DNA from: Candidatus Binatia bacterium
GTDB taxonomy: Bacteria; Desulfobacterota; Binatia; UBA9968
NCBI GenBank assembly: GCA_036506735.1
Contig: DASXRG010000037.1
Location: 1,450-65,449, forward strand
DNA length: 64,000 bases
Reading direction: 5' to 3'
The position numbers and the translations under genes were made by a program. Below are positions 2,347 to 63,133 of the stretch, in pieces (the stretch's first letter is position 1; each line of letters begins with the position of its first letter). The notes under the pieces are model-generated. The model was given only the letters and a program-made list of their open reading frames with translations. It was not told where the DNA came from and ran no database searches.

Positions 2347-3351
2347 CTACAACCGCACCTTCTCCGCGTAGAGCTTATCCATGAAGCCGCTGGCTTTGAG
2401 CTCTTCGAGAAAATGCGAGTCGAACAGATCGCCGGGCTTTATGTTCCTGGATTTCGGATCGACCACGGCGACGGTGTCAAGAATCGCCTGGGCGGCTTCC
2501 TTATCCGGAAGCGGGAGCGGCTTCAGTTGCGCGGCGAAGGCTTCATACATCGTATCCAGCGCCGCCGGATTGGAGCCGCTGAAATATTTTTTGATGATCG
2601 CCATGCTCTCGGGGCGGCGGGTGAGGTAAAAGTGGATGGCTTCGACGTAGCCTTTGATGAAGCGTCGCACAGTATCCTCGTCGCGCCTGATGAAAGATCG
2701 AGTCGTCATCAGGAGCGCCGTGACGATCGGAATCTCTTTCACGTCGAGGATTTTGACGCCGAGCTTTTTCGCCTCGACGGCAAATTGCTGATTCAACGGC
2801 GCGCCCTGAATCAAATTTTTGGACAGGGCCAATATCCGGTTGGGCGCCATTCCCGCGGAGACGACCTCGACGTCGTTGGCGGGATCGAGGCCGGCCCGCC
2901 GCAGAATCACGCGGGCGACGAGGTCGGACCTCCCGCCGAGTTCGGAGACGCCGATTCTCTTGCCTTTGAGGTCGGCGACCTTGCCGATATTGTCGGTGAC
3001 GGCCATCCCGTAAGGCTCGACGCTCACGTGCGAGCAGAGCGAGACGATATCCGAGCCGGCCAGAACCGGCTGAACGATCGCCAGAGGATTGCCGAAGCCG
3101 ATCACGAAATCCGCGCCGATCAGCGACTGCACGCCGCCGGCGAGCAAATCGCGGATGAAAATCTCTTCGACCTCGATGCCGTTTTGCTTGAAGACCCCGC
3201 CGTCGATGCCGATGTAGGCGATGGCGGCGCCGACCTCCCAGCCAACGTAAGCGAGCCGCACTTTTTTGGGTTCCGCGGCCGCCGCGGAAGATGCCCACAG
3301 CAGCGCGCCCAAAAATAACGCGGCGAATTTCAAGTTCCAGGATTTTTTCAT
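2347..3351 (-). CDS. periplasmic solute-binding protein, NMT1/THI5-like (NitT/TauT-type ABC SBP fold)
   Basis: ORF 2347..3531 trimmed to MKKSWNLKFAALFLGALLWASSAAAAEP (signal peptide), with GGGGAA upstream. Paralogous to 12 other ORFs in the window. Confidence 0.8.
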   Translation of the reverse strand: MKKSWNLKFAALFLGALLWASSAAAAEPKKVRLAYVGWEVGAAIAYIGIDGGVFKQNGIEVEEIFIRDLLAGGVQSLIGADFVIGFGNPLAIVQPVLAGSDIVSLCSHVSVEPYGMAVTDNIGKVADLKGKRIGVSELGGRSDLVARVILRRAGLDPANDVEVVSAGMAPNRILALSKNLIQGAPLNQQFAVEAKKLGVKILDVKEIPIVTALLMTTRSFIRRDEDTVRRFIKGYVEAIHFYLTRRPESMAIIKKYFSGSNPAALDTMYEAFAAQLKPLPLPDKEAAQAILDTVAVVDPKSRNIKPGDLFDSHFLEELKASGFMDKLYAEKVRL

Positions 3352-3459
3352 TGGTTCCCCCAGATCGAGGTCGGGCGCGCGATTGAGCGATAACGGCGCC
3401 GACCGCTCAAGGTAATATTTTCGTCGCGCAGTTGCAAGCTTGCTCCCACAGTCCGTCCC

Positions 3460-3468
3460 TGGTATTTT
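3460..3468 (+). promoter_or_regulatory. extended -10 box TGgTATTTT, 6 nt upstream of the uvrB ATG (leaderless candidate)
   Basis: TG at 3460-3461 and TATTTT at 3463-3468, with ATG at 3475. There is no Shine-Dalgarno sequence in between. Confidence 0.35.
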
Positions 3469-3474
3469 TTTTCG

Positions 3475-7777: not shown

Positions 7778-8590
7778 TCACGAAGCGGGCGCCAAGCGCT
7801 CCGCGTGCCCGGGATGATGGCCCGCGCCGGCAAAGCCCAGCTGGTGCGACATCTGGCGGGCCGCATGCTTGATGAGCTTCACGTGGCTCTCGTACTTATG
7901 TGATCTCATCTGGCTCTCGGTGCCGGTCAATCCGACCGCGGCGACCGTCCGGCCTTCCATGTTAAAAATCGGCGCCGCTATGCAAACCACGTCGAGGTTG
8001 TTCTCGCTGTCGTCCGTGGCGTAGCCCTGCGCTCGCACCTGCGCCAGCTCGCGGAGCAGATGACCCAAGGTCGTGATCGTCTTGGGCGTGCGTTTGGGCA
8101 ATCCGCGGTCGCGAACGATTTCCTCGACGATTTCCTGAGGCAAGTGAGCGATCAATGCCTTGCCGACGGAAGTGCAGTGCACGTCCATCCTCCGCCCCAC
8201 CCAAGTGTTCATCCTTATGAACCCGGGCTTGTCGATTTTTTCTATGTAGACCGCCTCATGCCCGTCGAGAATGGCGAGGTGTCCGGCGAGGCCCGTTTTT
8301 TCCACCACATCTTGAAGCAGGGGATACGCCACGTCGTGAAGCTCCAGACCGCGGAGCGCCTGGCTGCCGACGCTGAACAGTTTGGCGCTGATGCGGTATT
8401 TCCCCAGAGCGTCGTCCCTGTGCAGATATCCGCGCTGCTTCAAGGTGCGCAGGATATAGCTGGCGGTGCTCTTCGGTATTTTGATCTTTCGGCTGATTTC
8501 CCCGTTGGTGAGGCCTTTTTTGCTGTGGCCCACGAGCTCGAGAATCGTCAGGGCCCGGTCGATCGCGTTAACGGTCAGCTTTTCTTTCAT
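7778..8590 (-). CDS. IclR-family transcriptional regulator
   Basis: N-terminal winged HTH ([12 protein letters not shown]...[25 protein letters not shown]) plus a C-terminal IclR effector domain. Divergent from isocitrate lyase. Confidence 0.9.
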
Positions 8591-10178: not shown

Positions 10179-11000
10179 TTAGGCGTCGATCGTTTGCCCG
10201 CCGTCGATCACCAGCGCGTGGCCGGTGACGAAAGACGATTCGTCCGAGGCGAGGAAAAGAACGCCGTAGGCGATCTCCTCCGGGCGGCCGATGCGCAAGA
10301 GCGCTTTGTTCAAGTTCGCCATTCGGGCGCGCTGCTCGTCGGTGAATTCCCCGGAGGCTTTGGGCGGGAAACCTCTGAAGCGCGCCGTTTCCACGCTACC
10401 GGGACAGACGCAGTTCACTCTGATTCCGCTCGGTCCGTAATCGAGCGCCATCTGGCGCGTCAGGTTGACGATCGCGGCTTTGGTCGCGCAGTACGCCGGA
10501 TACTTTTCGCTCGCCAGGAGTCCAAAGGTCGAAGCGGTGTTGACGATGTTTCCGCGGCCCATTTTTAGGAAGTGGGGAATGGCCGCGCGGACACCGCGGA
10601 AGATGCTGTTCAAATTCAAGTTCAGGATGAAGTTCCATTCGTCATCGGTATGCTCGTGAATCATTTTGCGAATGCCGCCGCCGGCGTTGTTGAATAAAAT
10701 GTGCAAATCGCCGAAGCGTTCCAGCGCTGTGGCGATCATCCGGTCGCAATCGGTCTGAACCGTGACATCGATTTTGGCGAAAACCGCTTTGCTGCCGTCT
10801 TCCTCAATGAGCTTGTCGATTCGCGGGCTGACGGTCTCCTGAATGTCGCAGCAGACAACCTTGGCGCCCTCGCGCGCGAAAAGTCGCGCCGTGGCGCGGC
10901 CGATGCCGCTGTTGGCACCCGTAACGATAGCGACTTTGCCCTGAAGTCTGCCCAACCCCTGCCCGAGTCCGGGATGCTCGTCGGTATCGGCTTGCGCCAT
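10179..11000 (-). CDS. SDR-family oxidoreductase
   Basis: Cofactor motif TGANSGIGRA and catalytic YCATK (Y-x3-K). Lies 12 nt downstream of the SBP gene 11013..12011. Confidence 0.9.
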   Translation of the reverse strand: MAQADTDEHPGLGQGLGRLQGKVAIVTGANSGIGRATARLFAREGAKVVCCDIQETVSPRIDKLIEEDGSKAVFAKIDVTVQTDCDRMIATALERFGDLHILFNNAGGGIRKMIHEHTDDEWNFILNLNLNSIFRGVRAAIPHFLKMGRGNIVNTASTFGLLASEKYPAYCATKAAIVNLTRQMALDYGPSGIRVNCVCPGSVETARFRGFPPKASGEFTDEQRARMANLNKALLRIGRPEEIAYGVLFLASDESSFVTGHALVIDGGQTIDA

Positions 11001-12111: not shown

Positions 12112-13110
12112 TTACCTTTTATATAGCTGCTTGATGAATCCGGACGCTTCCACCTCTTTGACCAGACTCTGATCGACAAATGCTTTTGCATCCGCCGTCG
12201 CCGCCTTGGGGTTCGAGCGCGCAACATCGTCGAGCATGGTCTTCACGCCTTCGGGCGTGGGAAGCAGATTATCCGGGAAGACCGCAGTATAGGCGCGATA
12301 CGCGCGCTCCAAGCTGTCGGGATCGGTGATGCGGAGATTCTTGCTGAAGATCGCTTTGGTCGGCTCTTTCTCCGTCTTGATGAAATGAACCGATTCGACC
12401 ATCGCGCGCGCGAACTTGGAAAAGATCGGGCGCTTCGTTTTGAGAATTGATTCTTGCGTGAGGACTGCGTTCCACCAGAATGGAATCTTCAACGAGCCGA
12501 TATCCAGCAGGTCTCTGAAGCCCAGCTTCTCGGCTTCACGCACGAACGGCTCCGGCATGATGGCGAATTGAATAACTCCTTTCGAGAGCGCCGCGAATCT
12601 TTCCGAGTTGCCGCCCGCGGTGATAATCCTGGTGTCCTTCTCAGGATCCACTCCAACCCTTCTGAGCGCCAGGCGCAGTCCGAGGTCCGACGTGCTGCCG
12701 AGCCGGTTGACGCCGCCCATCTTTCCCTTGAGTTGCTCCAACGCGGTGATGGATTTCAAGGTGATGATGTGATCCACGAACGTCGGGACCATGCCGAGAA
12801 TCATCACGATGTCGGCGCCGGCCAAACGTGAGCTGACCAGGGTCGTTACCGACGTGACGATCACGTCCACTTCGCCGGCGAGCATCGCCTGCAGCGCGGT
12901 GGGGCTGGCGCTGATGCGAATAACTTCGCCGATCAGGCCGTGTTTTTTGAGCAAGCCTCTCTCCTGAACCACCCAGATCGGGCTGTTGGCCGGGCTGTCT
13001 CCGGCCCAGGCGATGCGGATGCGATCTTGGGCCGAAGCTGCATTTAGCGGGCCGAGTAGAAGTAAAACCCCGAAAATAAGCGTTAGAAAGATACCCGTGA
13101 CTCTTTGCAT
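12112..13110 (-). CDS. periplasmic solute-binding protein, NMT1/THI5-like
   Basis: 332 aa with a signal peptide ending ASAQ. Tandem paralogue. Confidence 0.8.
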   Translation of the reverse strand: MQRVTGIFLTLIFGVLLLLGPLNAASAQDRIRIAWAGDSPANSPIWVVQERGLLKKHGLIGEVIRISASPTALQAMLAGEVDVIVTSVTTLVSSRLAGADIVMILGMVPTFVDHIITLKSITALEQLKGKMGGVNRLGSTSDLGLRLALRRVGVDPEKDTRIITAGGNSERFAALSKGVIQFAIMPEPFVREAEKLGFRDLLDIGSLKIPFWWNAVLTQESILKTKRPIFSKFARAMVESVHFIKTEKEPTKAIFSKNLRITDPDSLERAYRAYTAVFPDNLLPTPEGVKTMLDDVARSNPKAATADAKAFVDQSLVKEVEASGFIKQLYKR

Positions 13111-13507: not shown

Positions 13508-13534
13508 GTAGGCGAGCTGGAACCTCGCGCCTAC
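13508..13534. terminator. imperfect hairpin between convergent genes
   Basis: GTAGGCGAG pairs with CTCGCGCCTAC (one bulge). The hairpin overlaps the stop codon of the SBP gene. No clear T-tract. Confidence 0.25.
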
Positions 13535-14514: not shown

Positions 14515-14646
14515 GGCAGGACCCTCCATGTTACGGCGAGATTAACACCACCCTTTCCTGCGGGTCAATCTTCTCCGCTCGCGTGCGCGCTGTCAAGAAA
14601 TCAGCGGCGGAATTTTAGCGCGACGGCTGGGCCGGGAATTGTGTCG

Positions 14647-25439: not shown

Positions 25440-25492
25440 TATCCCGGGACGCCACACGCCCGCCACAACAAACTTTTTCCGGACAAGGCCTG

Positions 25493-42380: not shown

Positions 42381-42394
42381 AAAGGAATTCTGAA

Positions 42395-47297: not shown

Positions 47298-47329
47298 ATT
47301 CGAGGTCGTTGACTTTTAAAGGGGGCACG

Positions 47330-51028: not shown

Positions 51029-51970
51029 ATGATGCTGCGCTGGATAATTGGCATTCTGTTGTTGCTCTATCCGATCACCACGGGCGCGGCGGAGAGAGTC
51101 CGCTATGCCTATCCGGCGAAGAGCCTCAACTACCTGCCGCTTTTTTTAGGAAAGGAAAAAGGGATTTACGCGGGCGAGGGGATCGATTTGGAGCTGGTCC
51201 TGGTCACGTCGCGCATCCAGGTGACGGCGCTGACGACCGGCGACCTCGAGTTCTCCGGCGCGCAGAGCCAAGTCTCCGGCGCCGCGGCGATCGGATTTCC
51301 CGTAAAAGTCGTCGGCTTCTTGACCGTCAAGCCGACCTTCTGGCTGATCGCGCGACCGGAGATCCGCGCAATCCCCGACCTTAAGGGCAAGGTCATCGGT
51401 ATTACCGCGATCGGTTCTTCCACCGATACGCTGGCGCGCTACATTGTCCGAAAGTACGGCCTGGTTCCAGATAAAGAAGTCGCGCTTTTTGCGACGGGAA
51501 CCACATCCAACATTCTTGCCGCGCTGAACGGGGGCTCGGTGCAGGCCGGCATGCTGTCGCCGCCGTTTCACGCGATGGCGCAGCAGATGGGATTTCACAT
51601 ACTGGCTTACTTAGGCGATCACGTCGAGCAATCGCTCTCCGGCGTGGGAACTTCGGAGAAGATGCTGCGCGAGCGGCCGGAGACGGTCAAGAAAGTCCTG
51701 CGCGCGACCTTGAAGAGCCTCCGCTACATCCGGCAGAACCGCGAACAGACCGTGCAGCACGTTCTCCGTGAATGGAAAGTCGAGCGGCCGCTGGCGGAAG
51801 AGCTTTACGCGTCGATGCTGCCGGCTTTTTCTCCCGACGGCGGTATGAACGAAAAAGGCATCCGTGACGCGTTGGAGCGCGAGATGGGCCGGGTGGACAA
51901 GAAAGAAGAGATCCCGCTTTCGCGGGTAGTGGATTTGCGCTTGCTAAAGGAAGTACAAAAGGAGCTGTAA
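51029..51970 (+). CDS. periplasmic solute-binding protein, NMT1/THI5-like
   Basis: ORF 50807..51970 trimmed to MMLRWIIGILLLLYPITTGAAE. Confidence 0.78.
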   Translation: MMLRWIIGILLLLYPITTGAAERVRYAYPAKSLNYLPLFLGKEKGIYAGEGIDLELVLVTSRIQVTALTTGDLEFSGAQSQVSGAAAIGFPVKVVGFLTVKPTFWLIARPEIRAIPDLKGKVIGITAIGSSTDTLARYIVRKYGLVPDKEVALFATGTTSNILAALNGGSVQAGMLSPPFHAMAQQMGFHILAYLGDHVEQSLSGVGTSEKMLRERPETVKKVLRATLKSLRYIRQNREQTVQHVLREWKVERPLAEELYASMLPAFSPDGGMNEKGIRDALEREMGRVDKKEEIPLSRVVDLRLLKEVQKEL

Positions 51971-51975: not shown

Positions 51976-52935
51976 ATGGCCAAGCGGATTACATTCGCCG
52001 GCGGAGATTACGACCGCACGCACGCGTTGATCGAAGGCAGCATCAAACCAGAAGGGCTCGAGCTCGACTGGAAAATTCTCCCTTACCACGACATCTGGAC
52101 GCGGATGCTCAACCGCTACGAGTTCGACGCATCGGAGCTATCGCTCTCGTCCTACCTGATTGCGCGCACGATGGGGAAACCGCTGATCGCGCTGCCGGTC
52201 TTTCCGGCGCGCGCCTTTCGCCATTCCTGCATCTTCGTCAACGCGCGGAGCGACATCCGCGAGCCGCGCGACTTGATGGGTAAAAAAGTCGGCCTGGCGG
52301 AGTTCCAGCAGACTGCGACCGTGTGGGTGAGAGGCGCGTTGCAGCACGACTACGGCGTCGATTTAGACAAGATCCATTGGTTCACCTGGTCGAAGATGCG
52401 AATGGAAATCGAGATGCCGCGGCGCTACGACGTGAGTCAGATTCCTTCCGACAAGGCGCCTGACGAAATGCTGGCGCGCGGCGAACTGGATGCGATGATC
52501 TGCGCGAATCTGTTTCCGTTGCTGCTGAAGGGCCATCCGCAGATCCGCCGTCTGTTCGAGGACTATCCGGAAGTCGAAGCCGCTTACTTCAAAAAGACCG
52601 GGATCTTCCCGATCATGCACACGGTCGCCATGCGAGAGGAGCTATGGAAAGAGTCGCCGTGGATGGCGCTCAGCCTCTTCAAGGCTTTTCAACAGGCGAA
52701 GGCCGAGGCCTACGCTAGACTCAACGATCTCTCGCCGTATAAGATCAGTCTCGTCTGGTTCCGCGAGCCGGTGAAGCAACAGAAAGAAATTCTCGGCGAC
52801 GATCCCTGGCCGTATGGTCTGGCGAAAAACCGCCACGTGGTGGAAACGTTGATGGGATATCTCTACGAGCAAGGACTGGCGCGGAAGAAACTCCCGGTCG
52901 AGGAGCTGTTCGCGCCGAATATGTTGGAGCTTTGA
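51976..52935 (+). CDS. cytoplasmic SBP-fold protein, 4,5-dihydroxyphthalate decarboxylase-like
   Basis: No signal peptide. The N-terminus ITFAGGDYDRTHALIEGSIKPEGLEL...FDASELSLSSY resembles the PhtD-type decarboxylase family as I recall it. Confidence 0.55.
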   Translation: MAKRITFAGGDYDRTHALIEGSIKPEGLELDWKILPYHDIWTRMLNRYEFDASELSLSSYLIARTMGKPLIALPVFPARAFRHSCIFVNARSDIREPRDLMGKKVGLAEFQQTATVWVRGALQHDYGVDLDKIHWFTWSKMRMEIEMPRRYDVSQIPSDKAPDEMLARGELDAMICANLFPLLLKGHPQIRRLFEDYPEVEAAYFKKTGIFPIMHTVAMREELWKESPWMALSLFKAFQQAKAEAYARLNDLSPYKISLVWFREPVKQQKEILGDDPWPYGLAKNRHVVETLMGYLYEQGLARKKLPVEELFAPNMLEL

Positions 52936-52944: not shown

Positions 52945-55170
52945 ATGACAACGGACAAGTTCAAGATCATCGGGACGTCCGTCAACCGCGTCGACGGAGT
53001 CGATAAAGTCACCGGCCAGGCGAAATACGTCGGCGACATCGCAGTGCCCGGAATGGCCGAGGGAAAATTTCTCCGCAGCCCGTATGCCCACGCGCGCATC
53101 GTCTCGATCGACACGGCGGAGGCCGAGCGGCTTCCCGGCGTCGTTACGGTTTTGACCGCGAAAGATCTCGGCGACATTCATTTATATTTGGGCAGAAAAG
53201 AGCGGAAAGACCAGCCGATCATCGCCGTCGATCGCGCGCTCTACGCCGGCCAGCCGGTCGCGGCGGTCGCGGCGGTCGATCCGTTCACCGCCGAGGAAGC
53301 GCTGAGCAAGATTCACGTCGAGTACGAAGAATTGCCTGCCGTAATCTCCGTGCCGGAGGCGATCGCCGACAGCGCGCCGCAGATTCATTCCTTCGCGGCG
53401 AAAAATATCTGCTTTCAGGACGAGCTGATAAAAGGAGACGTGGCAAAGGGCTTCGCCGAGTCCGAGGAGATCGTCGAGGATACCTTCGAATTCCCGATGG
53501 TCTATCATTATTCGATGGAACCGCACACGACCATCGCCAAAATAGACTCGGAAGGCATCACTGTCTGGTCTTCGAACACGCACCCGTTCGGCATTCGCCA
53601 GGAGCTCGCCGAGATCTTCGGCTGCTCGCTCGCGAAGGTGCGCGTGATGGTGCCTTTGGTCGGCGGCGCTTACGGCAGCAAGTCCGGCTGCAAGATCGAG
53701 CCGCTGGTCGTCGCGCTGGCGCGCAAGGCGGGAACCGCCGTCAGAGTGAGGCAGAGCGTGTCCGAGGCGATGATGACCGTGCGCCGCCACTCCGTCACCT
53801 GCAAGGTCAAGACCGGAGTAAAAAAAGACGGCACCCTGGTGGCTAAACAGGCCGAGATTTACCTCAACACCGGCGCTTTCGCCGAGACCGGACCGATCGT
53901 GACCGGCCGGACACTGACGCGCATCCTGGGGCCGTATCGAATTCCTCACCTCAAGGTGAAAGCTTACTGCGTCTATACCAACACGGTCTCCGCCGCGTCT
54001 TTTCGCTCCATCGGCGGGCCGCAGACCGCCTGGGCGACGGAATCGCAGATGGACATCATCGCGCAGAAGCTCGGCCTCGACCCGGTCGAGTTGCGCCGCA
54101 AAAATCTGCTGCGCAAAGGAGAGGAGCTGAAGCCCAAAGGCAATCCGCTCGACGCCGATCTCTTCACAGCGCTCGACAGGGTCGCGCGAAAGATGGAATG
54201 GGACGGGCCGGCGCCGGCGAGCGGACGCGGCAGAGGCATCGCGTTCGGCGTCACGGATCCGGGCGCGCCGCTGGCCTCGACGGCGACGGTGCACGTGCTG
54301 TCGGACGGCAGCGTGGTTCTTCTCGCCGGCACCGTGGAATGCGGGCAGGGCGCGCGGACGGTCATGAGCCAGATCGTCGCGGAAGAGCTGTTGGTGCCGC
54401 TCAAATGCGTGACCATGCGCGCGCCCGACACCGCTTACACGCCTTTCGACCGCTCCACCGGCTCGAGCCGCTCCACGACCGTGATGGGAAAAGCGGTGCA
54501 GCTCGCGGCGCGGGACGCGCGCCGGCAACTGCTGGATTTGGCCGCGGAGCAGTTCGAGGCGCCGCTGGAAGCGATTACTCTGCAAGACGGAAGCGCCGCC
54601 GCCGGAAACAAGACGGCGCCTTACGGCGATCTCATTCGCCGCCACTTCGCGATGCAGGGAGGGGAGATCGTCGGCTGCGGCTACGCGCACGGCGGCATGG
54701 CCCCCAAGCCTGCGAACCCGCTCTTCTGGGAGGTCGGCATCGGCGCGGTCGAAGTGGAGGTGGACCGGGAGACCGGAAAGATCCAGGTCACGAAATACAT
54801 CTCCGCCGCCGACGCCGGCAAAGCGCTGCACCCGATTCAGTGCGAGGGCCAGGACGAGGGCTCCGCGATGATGGGCGTCGGCCACACTTTCTACGAGTCG
54901 GTCATTTACGACGGCGGGCAGATCGTCAACGCGAGCCTCGTCGATTACAAGGTTCCGACTTTCGACGACGTGCCCGGCGAATTCGACACGATCCTGATCG
55001 AAGACCAAAACGGGCCCGGACCCTATGGCGCCAAGGGCATGGGCGAGGGCGGCATCATTCCGGTCGCGCCGGCGATCGCCAACGCGCTCGCCTGGTCGAC
55101 GGGCGCGAGGATCAAAGAGCTTCCGCTCACCCCGGAGAGAGTGTGGCGCGCGCTCAAGAAACGGTCCTGA
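52945..55170 (+). CDS. xanthine dehydrogenase-family molybdopterin-binding subunit 3
   Basis: 741 aa. Contains VNRVDGVDKVTG, PLVGGAYGSKSG and AKGMGEGG. Confidence 0.9.
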   Translation: MTTDKFKIIGTSVNRVDGVDKVTGQAKYVGDIAVPGMAEGKFLRSPYAHARIVSIDTAEAERLPGVVTVLTAKDLGDIHLYLGRKERKDQPIIAVDRALYAGQPVAAVAAVDPFTAEEALSKIHVEYEELPAVISVPEAIADSAPQIHSFAAKNICFQDELIKGDVAKGFAESEEIVEDTFEFPMVYHYSMEPHTTIAKIDSEGITVWSSNTHPFGIRQELAEIFGCSLAKVRVMVPLVGGAYGSKSGCKIEPLVVALARKAGTAVRVRQSVSEAMMTVRRHSVTCKVKTGVKKDGTLVAKQAEIYLNTGAFAETGPIVTGRTLTRILGPYRIPHLKVKAYCVYTNTVSAASFRSIGGPQTAWATESQMDIIAQKLGLDPVELRRKNLLRKGEELKPKGNPLDADLFTALDRVARKMEWDGPAPASGRGRGIAFGVTDPGAPLASTATVHVLSDGSVVLLAGTVECGQGARTVMSQIVAEELLVPLKCVTMRAPDTAYTPFDRSTGSSRSTTVMGKAVQLAARDARRQLLDLAAEQFEAPLEAITLQDGSAAAGNKTAPYGDLIRRHFAMQGGEIVGCGYAHGGMAPKPANPLFWEVGIGAVEVEVDRETGKIQVTKYISAADAGKALHPIQCEGQDEGSAMMGVGHTFYESVIYDGGQIVNASLVDYKVPTFDDVPGEFDTILIEDQNGPGPYGAKGMGEGGIIPVAPAIANALAWSTGARIKELPLTPERVWRALKKRS

Positions 55171-55204: not shown

Positions 55205-56266
55205 ATGAAGCATAAACTTCGAAGCCTAGGATGGTTGATCCTCTGGTTGGCCGCGCTGCCCGGCACCGGACACTCCGACGTCGGCGACCTTCTCACGCAA
55301 GTCAATCGGAAGCCGGCGGAGGAGCGACAGCAGTTGTTGTTGGACAACGCCAAAAAAGAAGGCGGCTTGACTCTATATACCGCGACCAACGTCCGCGACA
55401 CTCAGGACGTGATCGCCGGATTCAACAAACATTATCCTTTTTTGAAGGTGAGCTCTTTGAGCCTGGGCGGTCCGGGCGTGCTCAACAAGATCACGACGGA
55501 GTACCGGGCGGGAGTGCACAACGCCGACGTGGTCGTGCTGACCGGAAATAACGCCCTGGAGCTGATCGACAAGAAAATCGTTGCTATCTACAGGAGTCCC
55601 ATGATTCCTTTCGTGCGCAAAGGCTTTGTCGACGAGGAGGGATTGTGGCCCGGCGTTTACGCGATCGGATATACCATCATCTATAATACGAAGAGAGTCG
55701 CTCCCAGAGAGATCCCGAAGCAGTACGAGGACCTGCTGAATCCCAGGTGGAAGGGCAACATGCTCATGGATGCCGAGGCCCACGATCTGCTCGCCGGCCT
55801 GATCGATCTTTGGGGCGAAAAAAAGGCGACTCATTTCCTGCAACAGCTCGCCGATGTGCAGGGGGTTCGGTTCGCGCGGCAGTCGCATACCTTCATGACC
55901 CAGCTCGTCGCCGCGGGAGAACACGATCTGATCGTCGATGGCTACGTGCACAATGCCGTCAAGATGAAATCCGAGGGCGCGCCGATCGATTTTGTTTCTT
56001 TGAATCCGACCATCGTGAGGACGCCGTCCGTCATCGCGATTTCGTCGCATGCCCCGCACCCTTACGCCGCGGCGCTCTTCGAGGACTATCATCTCTCGAA
56101 AGAGGCGAGCGAGATCATGGTGAAGAACCAGGGGAGATGGGCGCCGCGCAAGGACGTGAAATGGACGGTCGAGCCTGAAACCGACGTGCACGTCGTGCCC
56201 ATGTTCGTATGGGGAAGAAAAAACCGGGAGCTGGTCGAATTTTTCAACAAGCTGGCGAAACGCTAG
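55205..56266 (+). CDS. extracellular solute-binding protein, family 1 (iron(III)/AfuA-like fold)
   Basis: ORF 55025..56266 trimmed to MKHKLRSLGWLILWLAALPG (GGAGAA upstream). Paralogue of 18865..19974. Confidence 0.72.
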   Translation: MKHKLRSLGWLILWLAALPGTGHSDVGDLLTQVNRKPAEERQQLLLDNAKKEGGLTLYTATNVRDTQDVIAGFNKHYPFLKVSSLSLGGPGVLNKITTEYRAGVHNADVVVLTGNNALELIDKKIVAIYRSPMIPFVRKGFVDEEGLWPGVYAIGYTIIYNTKRVAPREIPKQYEDLLNPRWKGNMLMDAEAHDLLAGLIDLWGEKKATHFLQQLADVQGVRFARQSHTFMTQLVAAGEHDLIVDGYVHNAVKMKSEGAPIDFVSLNPTIVRTPSVIAISSHAPHPYAAALFEDYHLSKEASEIMVKNQGRWAPRKDVKWTVEPETDVHVVPMFVWGRKNRELVEFFNKLAKR

Positions 56267-56322
56267 AGCGCCGGTCAAGCAGCGTAGCTTTTCCGCGCGG
56301 AGCCGAGGAGGCGTACTTCAAG

Positions 56323-56820
56323 ATGAAGGTCGAAAAGGCAGAATTGGTCGTGCAGGGAATGAAAGAAGCCGGCATTGATTTCGCCGTCGGCGTTCCCGAC
56401 GCGCAGTTTATCGAAGTCTACAAGATGGTGGATGAAGATCCCGACATTTACTACGTGGGCGCCGCCAATGAAGCCGAAGCGGCTGGCATCGGCTTGGGCG
56501 CCTGGTTCGGCGGAAAAAAGCCGGCCCTGATTATCGCCACCTCCGGATTGTTGGTGGCGACGTATCATCTGGCGCGCATCAATCTTCTCCACGAAGTGCC
56601 GCTTTTGATCGTCATCCCGTACCGCGGCGACATCGGCGATCCGCGCTGGCTGGGACTCTACAAAAAAACCACCGAGCCCGCTCTGCAAGCCATGGATATT
56701 CCCTACCGGGTGGTGCGCCGTCCCCAAGACACGATCAGGACCATCAAAGAATCGAACGAGAGCGCCAGGGCCTGGCTAAAACCGGTGGCGGTGCTTTTGA
56801 CCGAGGAGGCTCTATGGTAA
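56323..56820 (+). CDS. thiamine-diphosphate enzyme N-terminal subunit (ComD/alpha-like), second copy
   Basis: ORF 56209..56820 trimmed to ATG 56323 (GAGGAGG upstream). Contains ANEAEAAGIGLGAWFGGKKPALIIATSGL. Confidence 0.75.
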   Translation: MKVEKAELVVQGMKEAGIDFAVGVPDAQFIEVYKMVDEDPDIYYVGAANEAEAAGIGLGAWFGGKKPALIIATSGLLVATYHLARINLLHEVPLLIVIPYRGDIGDPRWLGLYKKTTEPALQAMDIPYRVVRRPQDTIRTIKESNESARAWLKPVAVLLTEEALW

Positions 56821-57440
56821 CTCGATTCGCATTGCTGAAGGCGCTGTCGTCGGTTCTATCGGACGACGTGCTGGTCGTCGCCAGCATCGGCAACAACAGC
56901 GGCTTCTGGGGGCAGTTGAAGGAGAGAGAATCGAACTTGTTTCATATTACGCTCGGCATGTGCACTCCCACGGCGCTGGGTCTTGCGCTGGCGTTGCCGA
57001 ACCGGAAAGTCGTCGCGCTCGACGCCGACGGGAATCTCATCTTGAACCTCGGAGTGTTGGGGACGGTCGCCAACGAGAATCCCCGAAACTTGACCGTGAT
57101 CGTCATGGATAATCGCAATTACCTGGGGAGCCACAAGAACGAGCCGGGGATGCCGACGGCGACGGCCGGTAAGATGAACCTGGAGGGCGTGGCCAAGGCG
57201 AGCGGGATACGCAGCGCGAGCACCGCAAGAAACGTGGGCCAGTTTCACAAAAGCGTAAAGGCCGCGCTGGCAAGAAAGGGTCCGCACCTCATCGTCGCGA
57301 AGATTGCGTCTTTGGACAACGACCGGCCGGCCAGAGCCCGGCGGCTCCCGGACCCGCGCGAAAACAAGTATCGATTTGCTGCCTACATCGAAAGAACGGA
57401 ACGAGCGGAGATTCTCGGCAGCGGACTTGGAGGAGGATAA
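56814..57440 (+). CDS. thiamine-diphosphate enzyme C-terminal subunit (ComE/beta-like), second copy
   Basis: Its ATG lies inside the last codons of the alpha gene (ATGGTAA). ThDP motif LDADGNLILNLGVLGTVA...VIVMDNRNY. Confidence 0.75.
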   Translation: MVTRFALLKALSSVLSDDVLVVASIGNNSGFWGQLKERESNLFHITLGMCTPTALGLALALPNRKVVALDADGNLILNLGVLGTVANENPRNLTVIVMDNRNYLGSHKNEPGMPTATAGKMNLEGVAKASGIRSASTARNVGQFHKSVKAALARKGPHLIVAKIASLDNDRPARARRLPDPRENKYRFAAYIERTERAEILGSGLGGG

Positions 57441-58420
57441 TGAGTGCAGTGCTGGGCCTCTTCAAGCGAGTGTCGCTCTGCTCGCTGACGCTTTTGTTTC
57501 TGCTGTCGTCCGTTAGAGCGGCAGAATTGAAGAAGATCACTTTCGGTTATTCCAGCATCGGCGGGATGGCGACCGGCGTATGGATGACAAAAGAGGTCGG
57601 GGCGTTTGAGAAGTATGGAATTCAAGCGGATCTCATCTATATATCCTCCGGCCCCGTCGTCGTGCAGGCTCTGATCGGAGGCGACCTTCAGGGAGGCAGT
57701 GGCGCCAGCAACGCGGTGATCAACGCGATCTTGAACGGCGCGCAGATCGTAGCGGTGGGCGGCACCGCCAACCGGCCCTATCACAGACTCTGGGTGCAGC
57801 CGGAGATCAACCGCCTCGAGGATTTGCGCGGCAAGACTCTCGGCGTCACGCGCTTCGGCTCTATCACGGACAACCTGACGAGAATTTTGCTCAGGCGGAA
57901 TGGCTTGGAAAACGCGGTGACGGTTCGCCAGATGGGCGGGACGCCGGAGGTCGGCGCCGCGTTCCAGCAGAAGGCGATCGCGGGCGCGGTGACTTCCGAT
58001 CTCCGCGTCGGCGCCCACGTGCCGGCGAAGATCCTGCTGAACTTCGTCGACCTGGGTATTCCCTACTCGATGAATATGATCGCGGTCTCGCGCGATTACT
58101 ACCGGCGCAATCCGGAAACCGTGGAAGGGATGGTCAGGGCCTACACCGAGGGAGTGGCGGCGATGAACGATCAGAAGGACCGCGCGCTCAAGGTGATTGC
58201 CAAGTACGCGCGCCTGAGCGATCCCAAACAGATCGAAGAGCAATATAAAGACTCCGTAACTTATCTGGAGCGCGTCCCCCGCGTCGAGCCCGAGGCGGCG
58301 GCCACGATCCTCGAGTTCATGGGCAAGAAGGGGATTCCGCTGGAGACTTTTTTCGATAATTCGATAGTGGACCGGATGGTACGTGAGGGGTTCATCGACA
58401 AGCTCTATAAGAAAAGGTAA
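57440..58420 (+). CDS. periplasmic solute-binding protein, NMT1/THI5-like
   Basis: TAATG overlap with the previous gene. Signal peptide ends VRAAE. Confidence 0.8.
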   Translation: MSAVLGLFKRVSLCSLTLLFLLSSVRAAELKKITFGYSSIGGMATGVWMTKEVGAFEKYGIQADLIYISSGPVVVQALIGGDLQGGSGASNAVINAILNGAQIVAVGGTANRPYHRLWVQPEINRLEDLRGKTLGVTRFGSITDNLTRILLRRNGLENAVTVRQMGGTPEVGAAFQQKAIAGAVTSDLRVGAHVPAKILLNFVDLGIPYSMNMIAVSRDYYRRNPETVEGMVRAYTEGVAAMNDQKDRALKVIAKYARLSDPKQIEEQYKDSVTYLERVPRVEPEAAATILEFMGKKGIPLETFFDNSIVDRMVREGFIDKLYKKR

Positions 58421-58432: not shown

Positions 58433-59167
58433 ATGGCGGAGATCGTCGCGCGGAAGCTGACGCAGGAGGAGGGCGGCATTCCCGGCTACATCGCCCATCC
58501 GGCGCGCGCCGAGCGGGGACCGGGATTATTGTTGATCCACCAACACTCCGGTCTGACCGGCTACTTGAAGACCGAGGCCTACAAGTTCGCGAAGCTCGGT
58601 TACTGCACCGTGATCCCTAACCTGTATCATTTGCTCGGCTATCCCGCGGAGACTCATATCCACACGGGGACCGAGATCCAGAACAAAACTCCCGACGGAG
58701 ATTTCGTGCGCGTCATCGACGCGGGCTGGCGATTTCTTATCGGCCGCGACGACGTCGATCCTGCGCGGGCCGGGGCGATCGGCTACTGCATGGGCGGCCG
58801 GATCGGCATTCACTTCGTGGCCGCCACTCCGCAAGTGCGAGCGTTCGTCGCCTACTACCCGTCCGTGAGAAACGAGCAGCCGACGCGTATACGGCCGCGC
58901 CACCCTTGCGACGCGGCGCGCGAGATCAAATGCCCTTCGATGGTGTTCTACGGCGGCCATGATTCCACCAGCACGATAGACGTGCAGCAGCGCGTCATGG
59001 AGAGTTTTCTCGCCAACGGCCAACCGCTTGAATGGCATTTTTTTCCGCGTGGAAATCACGGCTTCGCTTCGACGGAATCGGACGGCTACCAGCCTGAGCT
59101 CGCGGAGCTGGTCTGGCCGCTGGTGGTAGATTTTTTCAACCGCGAATTCAGGCAGCCGGCCCGCTAA
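58433..59167 (+). CDS. dienelactone hydrolase-family protein
   Basis: Nucleophile motif GYCMGG, alpha/beta-hydrolase layout and an HGF near the C-terminus. Confidence 0.82.
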   Translation: MAEIVARKLTQEEGGIPGYIAHPARAERGPGLLLIHQHSGLTGYLKTEAYKFAKLGYCTVIPNLYHLLGYPAETHIHTGTEIQNKTPDGDFVRVIDAGWRFLIGRDDVDPARAGAIGYCMGGRIGIHFVAATPQVRAFVAYYPSVRNEQPTRIRPRHPCDAAREIKCPSMVFYGGHDSTSTIDVQQRVMESFLANGQPLEWHFFPRGNHGFASTESDGYQPELAELVWPLVVDFFNREFRQPAR

Positions 59168-59230: not shown

Positions 59231-59569
59231 ATGGAAAAGCCGAGAATAAGACATATCGCGATCAACGTTCAGGACCGGGACAAGGAGGCGGAATACTACA
59301 AGCGCGTCTTCGGCATGGAAGAAAAAACGCGCGGGCCGGGCGGCACGATCTATCTTTCCGACGGCCACGTCGACGTCGCGCTGATCAGCACGACCAAGTA
59401 TCCCTGGGGCATCAATCATTTCGGCTTCAAAGTCGACAGCGTCAAGGCCGTCGAGCAGACCGCCGACACGAAAGCGGAAGACAACACGTTCGGCGCGATC
59501 GCGGAAAGCTGGATCAAAGACCCGGAAGGCAATCGGGTGGATGTCTCCGAGCACGGCTGGCCGATATAA
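59231..59569 (+). CDS. VOC-family (glyoxalase/bleomycin-resistance/dioxygenase fold) protein
   Basis: 112 aa with AGGAGGG upstream. Contains IRHIAINV and INHFGFKV beta-alpha-beta-beta-beta modules. Confidence 0.8.
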   Translation: MEKPRIRHIAINVQDRDKEAEYYKRVFGMEEKTRGPGGTIYLSDGHVDVALISTTKYPWGINHFGFKVDSVKAVEQTADTKAEDNTFGAIAESWIKDPEGNRVDVSEHGWPI

Positions 59570-59730: not shown

Positions 59731-60438
59731 ATGGACGAAAACGACTGGCGTTCGGCGCTCGGCGAGCTGGCGCGCGAGACGATGGCATCGCCGGAGGTAG
59801 AAAAATATTTTTCCGTGCCGATCACCAGGGCGCGGGCGCAGATCATCTTGCAGCAGTTGTCGCTTTACGTGCGCCACCGGCGCGACTGCTGGGCCTACGT
59901 CTCGGGCAACTGCCCCGTGCTGGCGGTGAAGCAGAAAATTCTCGGCCACGAGTACGAGGAGATGATCCGTGATTCACACTCCGAGCACGGCCATCTGGAT
60001 CTGATCATCCGACAGGGAAAAGCGATCGGCCTCACGGCGAAAGATATTCTCGAGACCAAGCCGGTTCCCTCGACGATGGCTACCTTATATAGCTGGGGCT
60101 GGATGACCAAGGCGAAGAGCTGGCTCGAAGGGTTGGGCGCGATGACAATCACCGAGTGGAATCAGGACGACCGCCTGCTCGGCGACCTGGGCGGCGGCCA
60201 CGCGTACAAGATGGGCCAGCGCTGGGTCGATCACCTGGGTCTCACCTGGGACGACCTGCCCAATTGGAAGGCGCACCGCGAAGCCGACAAGGAGCACACC
60301 GACATGTTTCTTCCCGTGCTCGCCGAATTCGCGGTCGGCGAAAAAGAGGCGATCGTTTTACAAGCGGCGCGCGAATCCGAAGAGCTTTACCGCACGTACC
60401 AGGCGGGGATAACCGCCGCGATGGAAGCGATCGACTAG
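59731..60438 (+). CDS. haem-oxygenase-fold protein, PqqC/CADD-like, cassette 1
   Basis: 235 aa with no signal peptide. Motifs GHEYEE, TITEW and HREADKEHTDMF. Conserved RHRRDCWAYVSGNCP. Confidence 0.7.
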   Translation: MDENDWRSALGELARETMASPEVEKYFSVPITRARAQIILQQLSLYVRHRRDCWAYVSGNCPVLAVKQKILGHEYEEMIRDSHSEHGHLDLIIRQGKAIGLTAKDILETKPVPSTMATLYSWGWMTKAKSWLEGLGAMTITEWNQDDRLLGDLGGGHAYKMGQRWVDHLGLTWDDLPNWKAHREADKEHTDMFLPVLAEFAVGEKEAIVLQAARESEELYRTYQAGITAAMEAID

Positions 60439-60445
60439 GAAAGAA

Positions 60446-61441
60446 ATGCGCGTGCTGAACGGTTTCGTCAAAGCGTACCGGCGTCGTGCGGTGTTCATGA
60501 CCGCGCTCGTGATTATCGTTGCGGCGGCGGGACTTGAGGCCGCGGACGCGCCCAAAGAGAAAGTCACTTTCGGATGGGCCGCGGTCAGCCCGACGATGGC
60601 CGGCATCTGGATGGCGAAAGAGACCGGCGCATTCGAGCGAAACGGCCTCAACGCGGAACTGGTCTATATCAGCTCGGGCGCCGTCGTGATCCAGGCGCTC
60701 GTCGGCGGCAGCGTGACCGCGGCCTTGGGCGCGAGCAACGCGGTGGTTGCAGCGATCCTCAAGGGCGCGCCGATCGTCGCCGTCGGCAGCAACACGAGCC
60801 GTCCCGGCATGGTGTTGTGGGTGCAGCCCGAGATCAGCAAGCCGGAGCAGTTGCAGGGGAAGACGATGGCGATCACGCGCTACGGCTCCACCAGCGACTT
60901 TGTCACCCGATTGATCCTGAAAAAACTGAACCTCGACGGCAAAGTCGAGATCCGCCAGTTCGGCGGCGTCGTCGAGGCCGACGTCGGCTTCCGCGCGCGC
61001 CAGGCGGCGGGCCGCGTCGCGTCGCAGGCGCCCGACCCGCAGGCCAGGGCGCTGGTCGACGCCGGGGAGCTCGGCATTCCGTTTTCGATGAACCTGCTCG
61101 CGGTGAGCAACGAGTTTTACCGGAAGTCGCCGTCGGTCGTCGAGCGGGTCGTCAAATCCTACGTCGACGGCATTGCGGCGCTGAGAACTAACAAGCAACA
61201 GGCGCTGCGCGTCCTGGGAAAATACATGGGCCAGCGCGGCGGCGCGCCGGAGATGCACTACGATTTCGTCGTCAAGTATCTCGATCCGGTGCCGCGCGTC
61301 GATCCCGCGGCGGTCGATACCATTCTCGAAATGGTCGGCCACTCCGGGCCCGCGCCGGCCAAGCTCTTCGACAACGCGGTGATCGACAAGCTGCGCAGCG
61401 AAGGCTATTTCAATAAATTGTATCCCGCGGGGAGCCGCTGA
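60446..61441 (+). CDS. periplasmic solute-binding protein, NMT1/THI5-like, cassette 1
   Basis: Signal anchor AVFMTALVIIVAAAGLEAADA. Paralogue of 57440..58420 and 62174..63133. Confidence 0.8.
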   Translation: MRVLNGFVKAYRRRAVFMTALVIIVAAAGLEAADAPKEKVTFGWAAVSPTMAGIWMAKETGAFERNGLNAELVYISSGAVVIQALVGGSVTAALGASNAVVAAILKGAPIVAVGSNTSRPGMVLWVQPEISKPEQLQGKTMAITRYGSTSDFVTRLILKKLNLDGKVEIRQFGGVVEADVGFRARQAAGRVASQAPDPQARALVDAGELGIPFSMNLLAVSNEFYRKSPSVVERVVKSYVDGIAALRTNKQQALRVLGKYMGQRGGAPEMHYDFVVKYLDPVPRVDPAAVDTILEMVGHSGPAPAKLFDNAVIDKLRSEGYFNKLYPAGSR

Positions 61442-62151
61442 TGAACGAAGCCGGCTGGAAAGATATTTTAGGCCGGATGGTGCGCGACTATATTCGCTCG
61501 CCTGAATTGGAGCGTTATTTTTCCGTTCCCATGACGAAGCGGCGCGCCGCGGTCATGGTGACGCAGCAGAGCCTGTTCGTGCGCCACCGGCGCGACTGCT
61601 GGGCCTACGTCTCGGGCAACTGCCCGGTGCTCGCGATCAAGCAGAGAGTTCTGGAGCACGAGTACGACGAGATCATCCGCGACCAGTTTTCCGAGTACGG
61701 CCACCTGGCGCTGATCATCAAGCAGGGGCAGTCCGTCGGGCTTACGCCCGAGGAGATCATCGACGCCGAGCCGCTGCCGGCCACGCGCGCGACGCTCTAC
61801 GCCTGGGGCTGGATCACGAAGGAAAAAAGCTGGCTCGAAGGGCTCGCCGCGATGACGATCACCGAATGGTGCAACGACGACCGGCTGCTCGGCGATCTCG
61901 GCGGCGGCCAGTCCACGCGCATGGCGAAGCGCTGGATGGAGGACATGGGGTTTACCTGGAAAGAGATTCCCAATTTACAGGCGCACAGCCAGGCGGATGA
62001 AAAGCACAGCGATATGTTCGTGCCTTTTTTGGCCCAGTACGCGACCGGCGAAAAAGAGGCGCTCGCGCTGCGCGCGGCGAAGGAGTCGTTGGACCTGAAC
62101 GCGATGTACCGCGAGGGCATCGCCGAGGCGCAGGAGCGGCTGACGGCGTGA
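61441..62151 (+). CDS. haem-oxygenase-fold protein, PqqC/CADD-like, cassette 2
   Basis: TGATG overlap with the previous SBP gene. Motifs EHEYDE, TITEW and HSQADEKHSDMF. Confidence 0.7.
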   Translation: MNEAGWKDILGRMVRDYIRSPELERYFSVPMTKRRAAVMVTQQSLFVRHRRDCWAYVSGNCPVLAIKQRVLEHEYDEIIRDQFSEYGHLALIIKQGQSVGLTPEEIIDAEPLPATRATLYAWGWITKEKSWLEGLAAMTITEWCNDDRLLGDLGGGQSTRMAKRWMEDMGFTWKEIPNLQAHSQADEKHSDMFVPFLAQYATGEKEALALRAAKESLDLNAMYREGIAEAQERLTA

Positions 62152-62173
62152 CGACTCTTGGAAAGCACGGCCG

Positions 62174-63133
62174 ATGTCGCAGATGAAGCGATTCAGCTTG
62201 ATCCTGACGGTCTTCTCCGCAGTCGCATTCGCTGCGGGCAGATGCGTCGCGCAGCAGAAAGTTACCGTCGCGTACTCTGCCGTGAGCCCCATCATGGCCG
62301 GCGTATGGATGGCGAAAGAGATCGGCGCGTTCGAGAAATACGGACTCAAGGCGGACCTGGTCTATATCAGCTCGGGAGCGATCACGGTGCAGGCGATGGT
62401 CGGCGGCGATCTGCACATGACCGTCGCCGCAAGCAACGCGGTGATCAGCGCGATCTTGCACGGCGCGCCGCTGGTCGCGGTCGGCAGCGTGACGAACCGT
62501 CCGGCGATGAGCCTGTGGGTCCAACCTGACATCACCAAGCCGGAGCAGCTCCAGGGAAAAATTTTAGCGATCACGCGTGCGGGATCGACGACCCATTTCT
62601 TGACCCTGGCCGTCCTCGACAAGCTCGGGGTTCGGGATAAGGCGAAGCTCCAATCCTTCGGCGGCACCATCGAGGCCGATACCGCCTTTCGCGCGGGGCT
62701 CGTCGCGGGCCGCGTTGCGTCGGTCAAGCCTGCGCCGCAGGCTCATTCACTGATCGATCTGCCGAAGCTCGGAATTCCTTTCTCGATGGATTTCATCGCG
62801 GTCAAGACCGATTTCAATCGGACCGCTCCAAAAACCGTCGAAGCGATGTTGAAGGCCTATATGGAAGGCGTGACGGCTCTCAGGTTGAAGGATCAGGCCT
62901 ATAGAGTATTGGAAAAATATCTGCGCCGCCCGGCCGCGACCCTCGACGAGCCGTACGAGTATGCCGTCAAGTACCTCGAGCGCGAGCCGAGAGTCGATCC
63001 GGCCGTGGTTCAGACGGTTCTGGATTGGGAAAGTAAACCGGACGTGCCGGTAAGCAAGTTTTTCGACAACGGCATCGTCGATCGCCTGATCAAGGAAGGT
63101 TTTGTCGATAATCTCGTCAAAGGAGGACGTTAA
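62174..63133 (+). CDS. periplasmic solute-binding protein, NMT1/THI5-like, cassette 2
   Basis: Signal peptide ends CVAQQ. Confidence 0.8.
   Translation: MSQMKRFSLILTVFSAVAFAAGRCVAQQKVTVAYSAVSPIMAGVWMAKEIGAFEKYGLKADLVYISSGAITVQAMVGGDLHMTVAASNAVISAILHGAPLVAVGSVTNRPAMSLWVQPDITKPEQLQGKILAITRAGSTTHFLTLAVLDKLGVRDKAKLQSFGGTIEADTAFRAGLVAGRVASVKPAPQAHSLIDLPKLGIPFSMDFIAVKTDFNRTAPKTVEAMLKAYMEGVTALRLKDQAYRVLEKYLRRPAATLDEPYEYAVKYLEREPRVDPAVVQTVLDWESKPDVPVSKFFDNGIVDRLIKEGFVDNLVKGGR

Follow-up and report, generated by a model that had tools for sequence, protein, structure and literature searches.

The window analysed here, 64 kb of Candidatus Binatia DNA from contig DASXRG010000037.1 of a metagenome-assembled genome (MAG), encodes 15 intact, secreted solute-binding proteins (SBPs), 13 of the NMT1 type and two resembling PhnS2, and neither a permease nor an ATPase of an ATP-binding cassette (ABC) transporter. 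The SBP genes are interspersed with genes for cytoplasmic enzymes, and the same transporter-free layout recurs in related genomes. We consider it rather probable that these cassettes are co-expressed and that the secreted SBPs capture related substrates and hand them over to a shared ABC translocon encoded elsewhere.

A G+C content of 58-63% and a strong bias in third-codon-position G+C were used to pick about 53 likely genes in the window, of which the 15 SBP genes make up 28%. The SBP share of genes in 49 model bacteria ranges from 0.22 to 5.13% (PMC9602780). Even against a background of 5.13%, the enrichment has a binomial P of about 4e-8, a value that is illustrative only, since the genes cluster. 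The SBP genes and two SBP-related open reading frames (ORFs) are the following:

2347-3351, minus strand: orphan NMT1-type SBP (S02347), alone beside uvrB; NMT1 55 bits, NMT1_2 44 bits
11013-12011, 12112-13110 and 13531-14529, minus strand: tandem trio of NMT1-type SBPs, then a short-chain dehydrogenase/reductase (SDR) gene at 10179-11000
18865-19974, plus strand: orphan PhnS2-like SBP (SBP_bac_1/8/11), 5' of a bicupin gene at 19998-21098
33839-34810, plus strand: orphan NMT1-type SBP (NMT1 80.7 bits), divergent from a luciferase-like monooxygenase gene at 32840-33826
39071-40042, plus strand: NMT1-type SBP (S39071), its stop overlapping (GTGA) the start of the enzyme gene at 40039
45334-46323 and 46320-47297, plus strand: tandem pair of NMT1-type SBPs, with ATGA overlaps between each other and with the upstream gene
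48641-49621, plus strand: NMT1-type SBP, following an M20 amidohydrolase gene
50766-50996, plus strand: truncated SBP
51029-51970, plus strand: NMT1-type SBP (S51029); NMT1 72 bits, orthologues up to 90% identical
51976-52935, plus strand: signal-less SBP-fold enzyme homologue, 4,5-dihydroxyphthalate decarboxylase-like
55205-56266, plus strand: PhnS2-like SBP
57440-58420, plus strand: NMT1-type SBP
60446-61441 and 62174-63133, plus strand: NMT1-type SBPs

An earlier note on this DNA, made from the letters alone, had listed 13 intact NMT1/THI5-like SBP genes, two family-1 SBPs (18865 and 55205), a truncated SBP (50766) and an SBP-fold enzyme homologue without a signal peptide (51976), and had credited all intact SBPs with signal peptides. 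This inventory stands. All 13 NMT1-type ORFs (313-334 aa) match the Pfam families NMT1 (PF09084, 33-91 bits) and/or NMT1_2 (PF13379, 30-77 bits), above the gathering scores of 20.5 and 24.7 bits, respectively. The two family-1 proteins match SBP_bac_1/6/8/11 and, weakly, PhnS2; for the protein encoded at 18865 the NCBIfam phnS2 match has an E-value of 1e-9. Translation of the truncated copy gives a real ORF of 76 codons, starting with ATG and comprising a signal peptide and the first beta-alpha unit before a stop. The product of 51976-52935 matches a 4,5-dihydroxyphthalate decarboxylase (PDB 9jp7) with E 2.2e-65 over residues 4-318 of 319, and is a predicted homologue of that SBP-fold decarboxylase.

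Heuristic reading of the N-termini found a basic n-region, a hydrophobic h-region and an AxA-type cleavage site in 15 of 15 intact SBPs; the signal peptide of S02347 is MKKSWNLKFAALFLGALLWASSAAAA. By heuristic, too, an N-terminal hydrophobic segment is present in 104 of 113 orthologues of the SBP encoded at 45334-46323 (S45334) and in 115 of 121 family representatives. Proteins of the window are identical in sequence to NCBI HEY2986551-HEY2986555. The public version of S45334 (NCBI HEY2986551.1) begins 36 codons further in (293 instead of 329 aa) and thereby loses the signal peptide, which is kept in orthologues of 318-335 aa. With the start placed too far downstream, automated annotation would call this protein cytoplasmic. 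For the PhnS2-like SBP at 18865, the leader between uvrC and the SBP gene contains a 33-bp unit repeated 1.9 times (93% match) at 18771-18833, which translates as PPLNLPLAKG twice within a long ORF starting at 18712. Because the repeat reads through in this ORF, the true start of the SBP is probably 18865.

Transporter components were absent from the window by three approaches, in agreement with the claim that none of its ORFs resembles an ABC permease or ATP-binding subunit. Pfam scans of about 52 window genes found no match to ABC_tran or BPD_transp_1. A six-frame, stop-to-stop phmmer search, seeded with E. coli TauB, TauC, SsuB and SsuC and with 24 lineage-specific NitT/TauT permease sequences, gave zero matches to a NitT/TauT permease or ATPase in the window (E<=0.01), yet it did pick up both permease and ATPase in two positive controls (loci L106 and L107). 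In a hydropathy scan, the only genuine multi-pass membrane protein of the window was ComEC (21107-23590, plus strand; Pfam Competence, DUF4131 and Lactamase_B), a negative control for the absence of a transporter, and two further signals were antisense ORFs within tetratricopeptide repeat (TPR) and uvrC genes.

The NMT1-type paralogues are old and diversified. Identity ranges from 22 to 81% across the 13 proteins and is 22-34% between groups. The closer sets are {11013, 12112, 13531} with 56-64%, {45334, 46320} with 81%, {33839, 48641} with 48%, and {57440, 60446, 62174} with 45-53%. All 13 have orthologues in other loci at 55-100% identity: those of S02347 reach 77% (5 loci), those of the trio 88-92% (11-46 loci), and for S45334 over 120 clusters of orthologues lie at 69-100%. 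Run against 1.84 billion representatives, a profile built from the 13 SBPs retrieved 4,592 clusters (50% identity) at E<=1e-30 and 30,135 at E<=1e-10. Three near-invariant residues, D144, R148 and Y271 (S45334 numbering), form a signature that 78-87% of the 150 best representatives retain and that is missing from TauA, SsuA and the SBP of the Binatia NitT/TauT operon described below. We infer tentatively that these residues would anchor a group shared by the ligands, for example a carboxylate.

S45334, the sole paralogue modelled, is predicted by AlphaFold2 to adopt the two-lobed class II periplasmic-binding-protein fold (pLDDT 91.7, pTM 0.85). Foldseek placed the model at probability 1.0 and TM scores of 0.70-0.76 with 3qsl, 4nmy, 3ix1, TauA and SsuA. 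The nearest structures are the Bordetella exported protein 3qsl, the thiamin SBP 4nmy, ThiY (3ix1), TauA, PqqT, SsuA and NrtA, and the SBP-fold enzymes THI5 and DszB are also among the matches. Together, Pfam for all 13 and the model for S45334, which is closest to NMT1-type SBPs, identify the ORFs as genuine binding proteins of this type. Identity with SsuA, TauA or SaoX was rejected, since in the four paralogues compared with NCBIfam all scores fell below the equivalog cut-offs (SsuA_fam 61-78 bits against 163.5; SaoX 35-42 against 300; TauA 25-27 against 304-490). No protein matched TctC (PF03401), which rules out Bug/TctC identity, and identity with the SBPs of tripartite ATP-independent periplasmic (TRAP) systems of the TAXI type was dismissed because the NMT1_3/TAXI matches were weak and below the cut-off.

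The orphan status of the SBPs is conserved across genomes. Related loci comprised 18 GTDB species-representative loci gathered around S45334 orthologues and 78 metagenome loci (560 kb, 133 SBP matches) gathered with an alignment of the S11013 group. Pooled (about 0.93 Mb), they contain 240 SBP-like ORFs, of which one, in L071, has a NitT/TauT permease as a neighbour, in a sample that is SBP-centred and hence biased. Among the 18 GTDB loci, ABC components within 10 kb were found in L024 only. They belong to MacB-type efflux and Tup/Mod-type systems, and the NMT1 SBP adjoining the Tup/Mod-type system sits on the opposite strand. Six of the 78 metagenome loci showed ABC similarity, five through ATPases and L071 through a NitT/TauT permease fragment. 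The ATPases beside SBPs in L024, L070, L072, L074, L080 and L088 were rejected as NitT/TauT ATPases, being MacB-type, Tup/Mod-type, ABC-F (L070) or PhnT2-like with a TOBE domain (TOBE-type in L074 and L088) instead.

The transporter-free gene order is the same in independent assemblies from NCBI, ENA, JGI and Logan, which excludes an assembly artefact; with the exception of the L071 permease, no cognate NitT/TauT genes were found at these loci, and the layout therefore does not come from faulty assembly. The shared backbone begins with a TENA-like gene, an SBP gene, one or more genes for molybdopterin subunits of the xanthine dehydrogenase (XDH) family, the [2Fe-2S] subunit gene, the SBP pair, the M20 gene, an SBP gene and the bicupin gene, and continues with further SBP genes, the decarboxylase homologue, a glyoxalase gene and SBP/TENA modules. 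The synteny of the TENA-like gene at 38192, the SBP gene at 39071 and the XDH-family large subunit gene is kept in L003, L008, L013, L015 and L016. The M20 and SBP48641 genes are both present in L003, L009, L011, L013 and L015 and both missing from L008, L010, L016 and L022, and are thus a cassette that is gained or lost as a unit. The pair formed by the XDH-family subunit at 52945 and its PhnS2-like SBP also occurs in L011 (91-93% identity). Always present in the syntenic loci compared are the bicupin at 49659 (89-91% identity in all of them; 107 members in its 90%-identity cluster) and the decarboxylase homologue at 51976 (80-90% identity in 15 loci). Depending on the locus, one to three SBP genes lie between these two, and relatives hold one or two extra intact SBP genes where the window has the truncated copy at 50766.

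Some of these MAG contigs (L009, L011, L016, L020 and L023) and the permease matches P0165, P0185 and P0264 show 78-88% identity under non-Binatia labels (Syntrophobacteraceae, Verrucomicrobiia, Udaeobacter, Zixibacteria and Eisenbacteria). Mis-binning or mislabelling is more likely here than wide horizontal transfer.

The Binatia lineage has at least one canonical, strongly conserved NitT/TauT translocon, encoded far from the orphans. In L071, an SBP 82% identical to S12112 adjoins a permease fragment of 114 aa, which can be aligned to the N-terminal part of SsuC and to JGI proteins named "NitT/TauT permease". As a query, this fragment gave 24 matches, mostly partial; a full-length query was rebuilt by hand from L106 and L107, long-read contigs with frameshifts. 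Over its 258 aa, the core permease is conserved at 80-98% identity among the 120 best clusters, of which four bear the name Candidatus Binatia. An operon of permease, NMT1 SBP and ATPase genes, in this order, is present in the Binatia assemblies GCA_050735975.1 and GCA_035315225.1 and was mapped at L110:10001-12641, with the SBP gene at L110:10794-11819, and at L112:4182-6795. The surroundings of the operon are syntenic and of housekeeping type (metH, DUF1178, FemAB-like, the operon, purM, purN, lysylphosphatidylglycerol (LPG) synthase, mgtE, htrA, tatA). NCBIfam places the operon as NitT/TauT-like (SaoP/SaoA, SsuC, TauC), no equivalog cut-off being reached. The permease is unusually conserved and always lies between the FemAB-like gene and purM/purN.

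A second candidate is found at L074:65-7229, a complete PhnS2/T2/U2-like importer with two PhnS2-like SBPs, a fused permease of 576 aa and a TOBE ATPase. The window's PhnS2-like SBP at 18865 is 23-27% identical to both of its SBPs. An NMT1 SBP with the orphan hallmark residues is encoded 210 bp 3' of this importer on the same strand, followed by a MobA-like gene whose product is of the molybdenum-cofactor nucleotidyltransferase type. The arrangement is shared by L072 and L080, and L088 has the same ATPase at the contig end. For the two PhnS2-like orphans of the window this importer is a plausible partner, and the NMT1 orphans might use it as an alternative.

The enzyme genes of the window, apart from those named above, are arranged as follows:

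34911-36030: split thiamin pyrophosphate (TPP)-dependent decarboxylase, downstream of the SBP gene at 33839
38192-38980, minus strand: TENA/THI-4/PQQC-like protein
40039-42324 and 42356-44695, plus strand: XDH-family molybdopterin large subunits (Ald_Xan_dh_C, MoCoBD_1/2)
44840-45337, plus strand: [2Fe-2S] small subunit (Fer2_2)
47309-48613, plus strand: M20 amidohydrolase (Pfam)
49659-50747, plus strand: dioxygenase-like bicupin (two Pfam Cupin_2 domains)
52945-55170, plus strand: third XDH-family molybdopterin subunit, followed by the PhnS2-like SBP gene at 55205
56209-56820 and 56814-57440, plus strand: split TPP-dependent decarboxylase, sulfopyruvate/phosphonopyruvate decarboxylase-like, below the NCBIfam cut-off
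58433-59167, plus strand: dienelactone hydrolase, next to the SBP gene at 57440
59231-59569, plus strand: glyoxalase-fold protein
59731-60438, 61441-62151 and 63133-63852, plus strand: TENA/PQQC/haem-oxygenase-like proteins (Haem_oxygenas_2, TENA_THI-4)

In total, the window has three XDH-family molybdopterin subunits, one [2Fe-2S] subunit, four bicupins, the M20 amidohydrolase, two split TPP-dependent decarboxylases, four TENA/PQQC/haem-oxygenase-like proteins, a luciferase-like monooxygenase, a lyase of the dihydrodipicolinate synthase (DHDPS) family, a dienelactone hydrolase, a glyoxalase-fold protein and the SBP-fold decarboxylase homologue. None of the neighbouring enzymes reached an NCBIfam equivalog cut-off. 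A set of this kind suggests that (hetero)aromatic acids are hydroxylated, decarboxylated and cleaved at the ring. The XDH, cupin, M20 and TENA proteins showed neither Sec nor Tat signals, which rules out a periplasmic location that would make uptake needless. Since the enzymes are cytoplasmic, their substrates must cross the inner membrane.

Stop/start overlaps at the junctions of SBP genes, which the earlier note had described, were checked and found at 40039 (GTGA), 45334 and 46320 (ATGA), 57440 and 63133 (TAATG) and 61441 (TGATG). In the run 59731-63852, TENA-like genes alternate with the SBP genes at 60446-61441 and 62174-63133, the last two of these overlaps included. A promoter/terminator scan of 44-64 kb gave sites no more frequent than in shuffled sequence, so that operons could not be defined in this way, and the window had no Rfam match at gathering scores to a riboswitch for SBP genes, including the xanthine riboswitch ("NMT1 motif").

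Several features of the enzymes deserve mention in their own right. The three XDH-family large subunits of the window stand against a single [2Fe-2S] small subunit, and no FAD-binding (CoxM/XdhB-type) subunit was found in the window or in the syntenic loci L005, L008, L009, L010, L016 and L022. Just within the 5' end of the second large subunit ORF lies an (AATTCAA) array of 4.6 copies (42406-42437); such an A+T-rich heptamer array is odd for a genome of about 60% G+C, and the GTG start at 42356 is doubtful. Each split TPP-dependent decarboxylase (34911-36030 and 56209-57440), made up of alpha and beta parts, adjoins an SBP gene. In the first of them, the ORF at 35299 overlaps its partner by 119 nt, and its start is therefore probably further downstream. 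The four TENA-like proteins alternate one-to-one with NMT1 SBPs. Haem_oxygenas_2 ("iron-containing redox enzyme") scores better for them, they have no NCBIfam match, and the closest PDB entry is 4lqx (1e-9). Judged by these similarities, they may not be thiaminases but di-iron oxidases resembling haem oxygenase.

Taken with the candidate translocons, this gene content can be accommodated in the following mechanism. The window would belong to a Binatia "supercluster" for the catabolism of (hetero)aromatic or N-heterocyclic acids, in which every enzyme cassette would come with a secreted NMT1-type or PhnS2-like protein of its own that binds with high affinity. The SBP genes would be co-transcribed with the cytoplasmic enzyme genes, often with stop/start overlap, so that pathway induction would also make the periplasmic receptor. 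Loaded receptors would then dock on a generic ABC translocon encoded elsewhere, the candidates being the purM/purN-adjacent NitT/TauT permease-SBP-ATPase operon for the NMT1 family and a PhnT2/U2-like fused-permease system, as in L074, for the PhnS2-like pair. We infer both the use of the core translocon by the orphans and their ligand class. The hedged suggestion of the earlier note, orphan SBPs with a shared transporter elsewhere or another role, is supported.

Three points weigh against docking on the core NitT/TauT translocon. The SBP of its operon is only 21-27% identical to the orphans and lacks D144, R148 and Y271, and co-evolved docking of the orphans is therefore not evident. The operon is documented in other Binatia assemblies, not from this MAG. 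Finally, the orphan-type NMT1 SBP just 3' of the PhnT2/U2-like transporter in L072, L074 and L080 hints at other partners.

This last point leads to the alternative that orphan NMT1 SBPs serve heterologous or multiple ABC translocons, for instance the PhnT2/U2-like fused-permease/TOBE-ATPase type. The three loci share the order of two PhnS2-like SBPs, fused permease, TOBE ATPase, NMT1 SBP and MobA, and PhnS2-like and NMT1 orphans are mixed in one gene run of the window. SBP genes of tripartite tricarboxylate transporters (TTT) in Rhodoplanes are also linked to ABC and TRAP genes (PMC5994714). Nevertheless, the arrangement occurs in only 3-4 of the 78 loci, the 210-bp gap in L074 could hold a separate promoter, and the NMT1 SBP beside the Tup/Mod-type system of L024 lies on the opposite strand. 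SBP structural clusters, moreover, normally pair with their own permease family. We thus regard service to heterologous translocons as unlikely.

Loaded SBPs might instead have a mainly sensory role and switch on the neighbouring catabolic genes by signalling via membrane sensors. Transmembrane receptors that are stimulated through SBPs are widespread (PMC9602780), and sensing has been proposed for orphan TTT SBPs as well (PMC5994714). However, no histidine kinase, chemoreceptor or other membrane sensor was found beside SBPs in the window or in the related loci (roughly 0.93 Mb). The window has just two regulators, of IclR type (7778-8590, minus strand; Pfam) and LysR type (31927-32847; Pfam), and both are cytoplasmic one-component regulators that need their ligand inside the cell. 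Both findings weaken the sensory alternative, and the cytoplasmic enzymes would still require an uptake route; a mainly sensory role seems very unlikely to us.

Some or all of the secreted NMT1-fold proteins could also be periplasmic enzymes, or could sequester the same compounds. Enzymes do use the SBP fold, as the Foldseek matches THI5 and DszB illustrate, and the signal-less 4,5-dihydroxyphthalate decarboxylase homologue is encoded in the same operon. Yet true SBPs are the best structural matches, THI5 is matched only weakly in sequence (E about 1e-6), and the decarboxylase homologue lacks a signal peptide and is barely alignable to the 13 SBPs (a single 20% match, S62174). An enzymatic or sequestering function is accordingly very improbable. 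Almost no weight can be given to the loss of permease and ATPase genes through mis-assembly, chimerism or frameshifts: the source is a MAG and the taxon labels of related MAG contigs are inconsistent, but the transporter-free order recurs in independent assemblies, the genes are intact with tight or overlapping junctions, and the six-frame search is insensitive to gene-calling errors.

The resemblance to orphan-SBP expansions of Bug/TctC proteins, also raised in the earlier note, holds as an analogy of genome organisation and not as homology; since no protein matched TctC, the window has no member of that family. In TTT systems, one translocon serves many Bug proteins, with up to 181 SBPs and four or fewer membrane systems (PMC5994714). 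As in Bordetella, Cupriavidus and Rhodoplanes (PMC5994714), many secreted paralogues of about 320-330 aa are encoded mostly away from membrane components and often next to genes of metabolism and regulation, translocons are proposed to be far outnumbered by SBPs, and the same two explanations, a shared translocon or sensing, apply. The differences are that the present proteins belong to NMT1 (PF09084) rather than TctC (PF03401), would depend on ATP-driven ABC transport of the NitT/TauT type rather than on secondary TctAB transport, come from uncultured Binatia, and are encoded by several genes per operon with stop/start overlaps; the SBP count given here (13 NMT1 paralogues) refers to 64 kb and not to a genome. 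More tentatively, the Binatia system could be the ABC counterpart of the Bug system, in which one or a few core NitT/TauT translocons serve dozens of 20-30%-identical plug-in SBPs that are turned over together with the enzymes; we entertain this broader view without favouring it. A stronger form would have NMT1-type and PhnS2-like SBPs cross between translocon families.

The NitT/TauT importers SsuABC, TauABC, ThiXYZ/ThiY, NrtABCD and PqqT share the Pfam family and fold of the orphans. Their canonical organisation, one SBP gene beside permease and ATPase genes, contrasts with 13 SBP genes and neither partner in the window, and the D144/R148/Y271 signature of the orphans is not found in TauA and SsuA. 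A precedent for the mechanism is E. coli MppA, an ABC-type SBP that is encoded away from a permease and borrows the OppBCDF translocon. MppA, however, is single and close to OppA, whereas dozens of orphans here are about 25% identical to the operon SBP. ThiY, the M20 deformylase YlmB and TenA form a module for thiamin-pyrimidine salvage, and the corresponding families (NMT1 SBP, M20 amidohydrolase, TENA/THI-4-like) co-occur in the window. In contrast to that module, the copies are multiplied and joined with XDH-family hydroxylases, bicupins and decarboxylases. No TenA or ThiY NCBIfam equivalog was identified, and Haem_oxygenas_2 fits the TENA-like proteins better. On this comparison of families, the cluster looks more suited to breaking down related heterocycles than to salvaging thiamin.

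One further gene pair is unrelated to the SBP theme. Directly 3' of comEC, two tandem DUF885 paralogues of 597 and 617 aa are encoded at 23646-27268, both with N-terminal hydrophobic signals.

Orphan-SBP expansions as such are already known. Our literature search found nothing relevant on an NMT1/NitT-TauT orphan expansion or on Binatia SBPs, and the terms "transporter", "ABC", "xanthine" and "aromatic" are absent from the text of the main Binatota genome survey (PMC8262859). Particular traits of the present case are several SBPs per operon, overlaps with enzyme genes, cassette-wise turnover and a very large metagenome subfamily that bears the residue signature.

Every SBP gene overlaps a particular enzyme gene or lies right against it, so that screening the SBPs for ligands is a direct way to find the substrates of a catabolic cluster that lacks annotation, with XDH-family hydroxylases lacking FAD subunits, bicupins, TENA/haem-oxygenase-like proteins and an SBP-fold decarboxylase. 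If a shared translocon is indeed used, transporter-operon counts in MAGs would badly underestimate uptake capacity, and the orphan-SBP principle, known from secondary TTT systems, would also hold for a primary ABC family. Such sharing would also raise the structural question of how a single permease dimer recognises SBPs with identities of only about 25%. A large set of fast-diversifying receptors, and not the transporters, would then determine the substrate range of these uncultured bacteria, which are abundant in soils and sediments.

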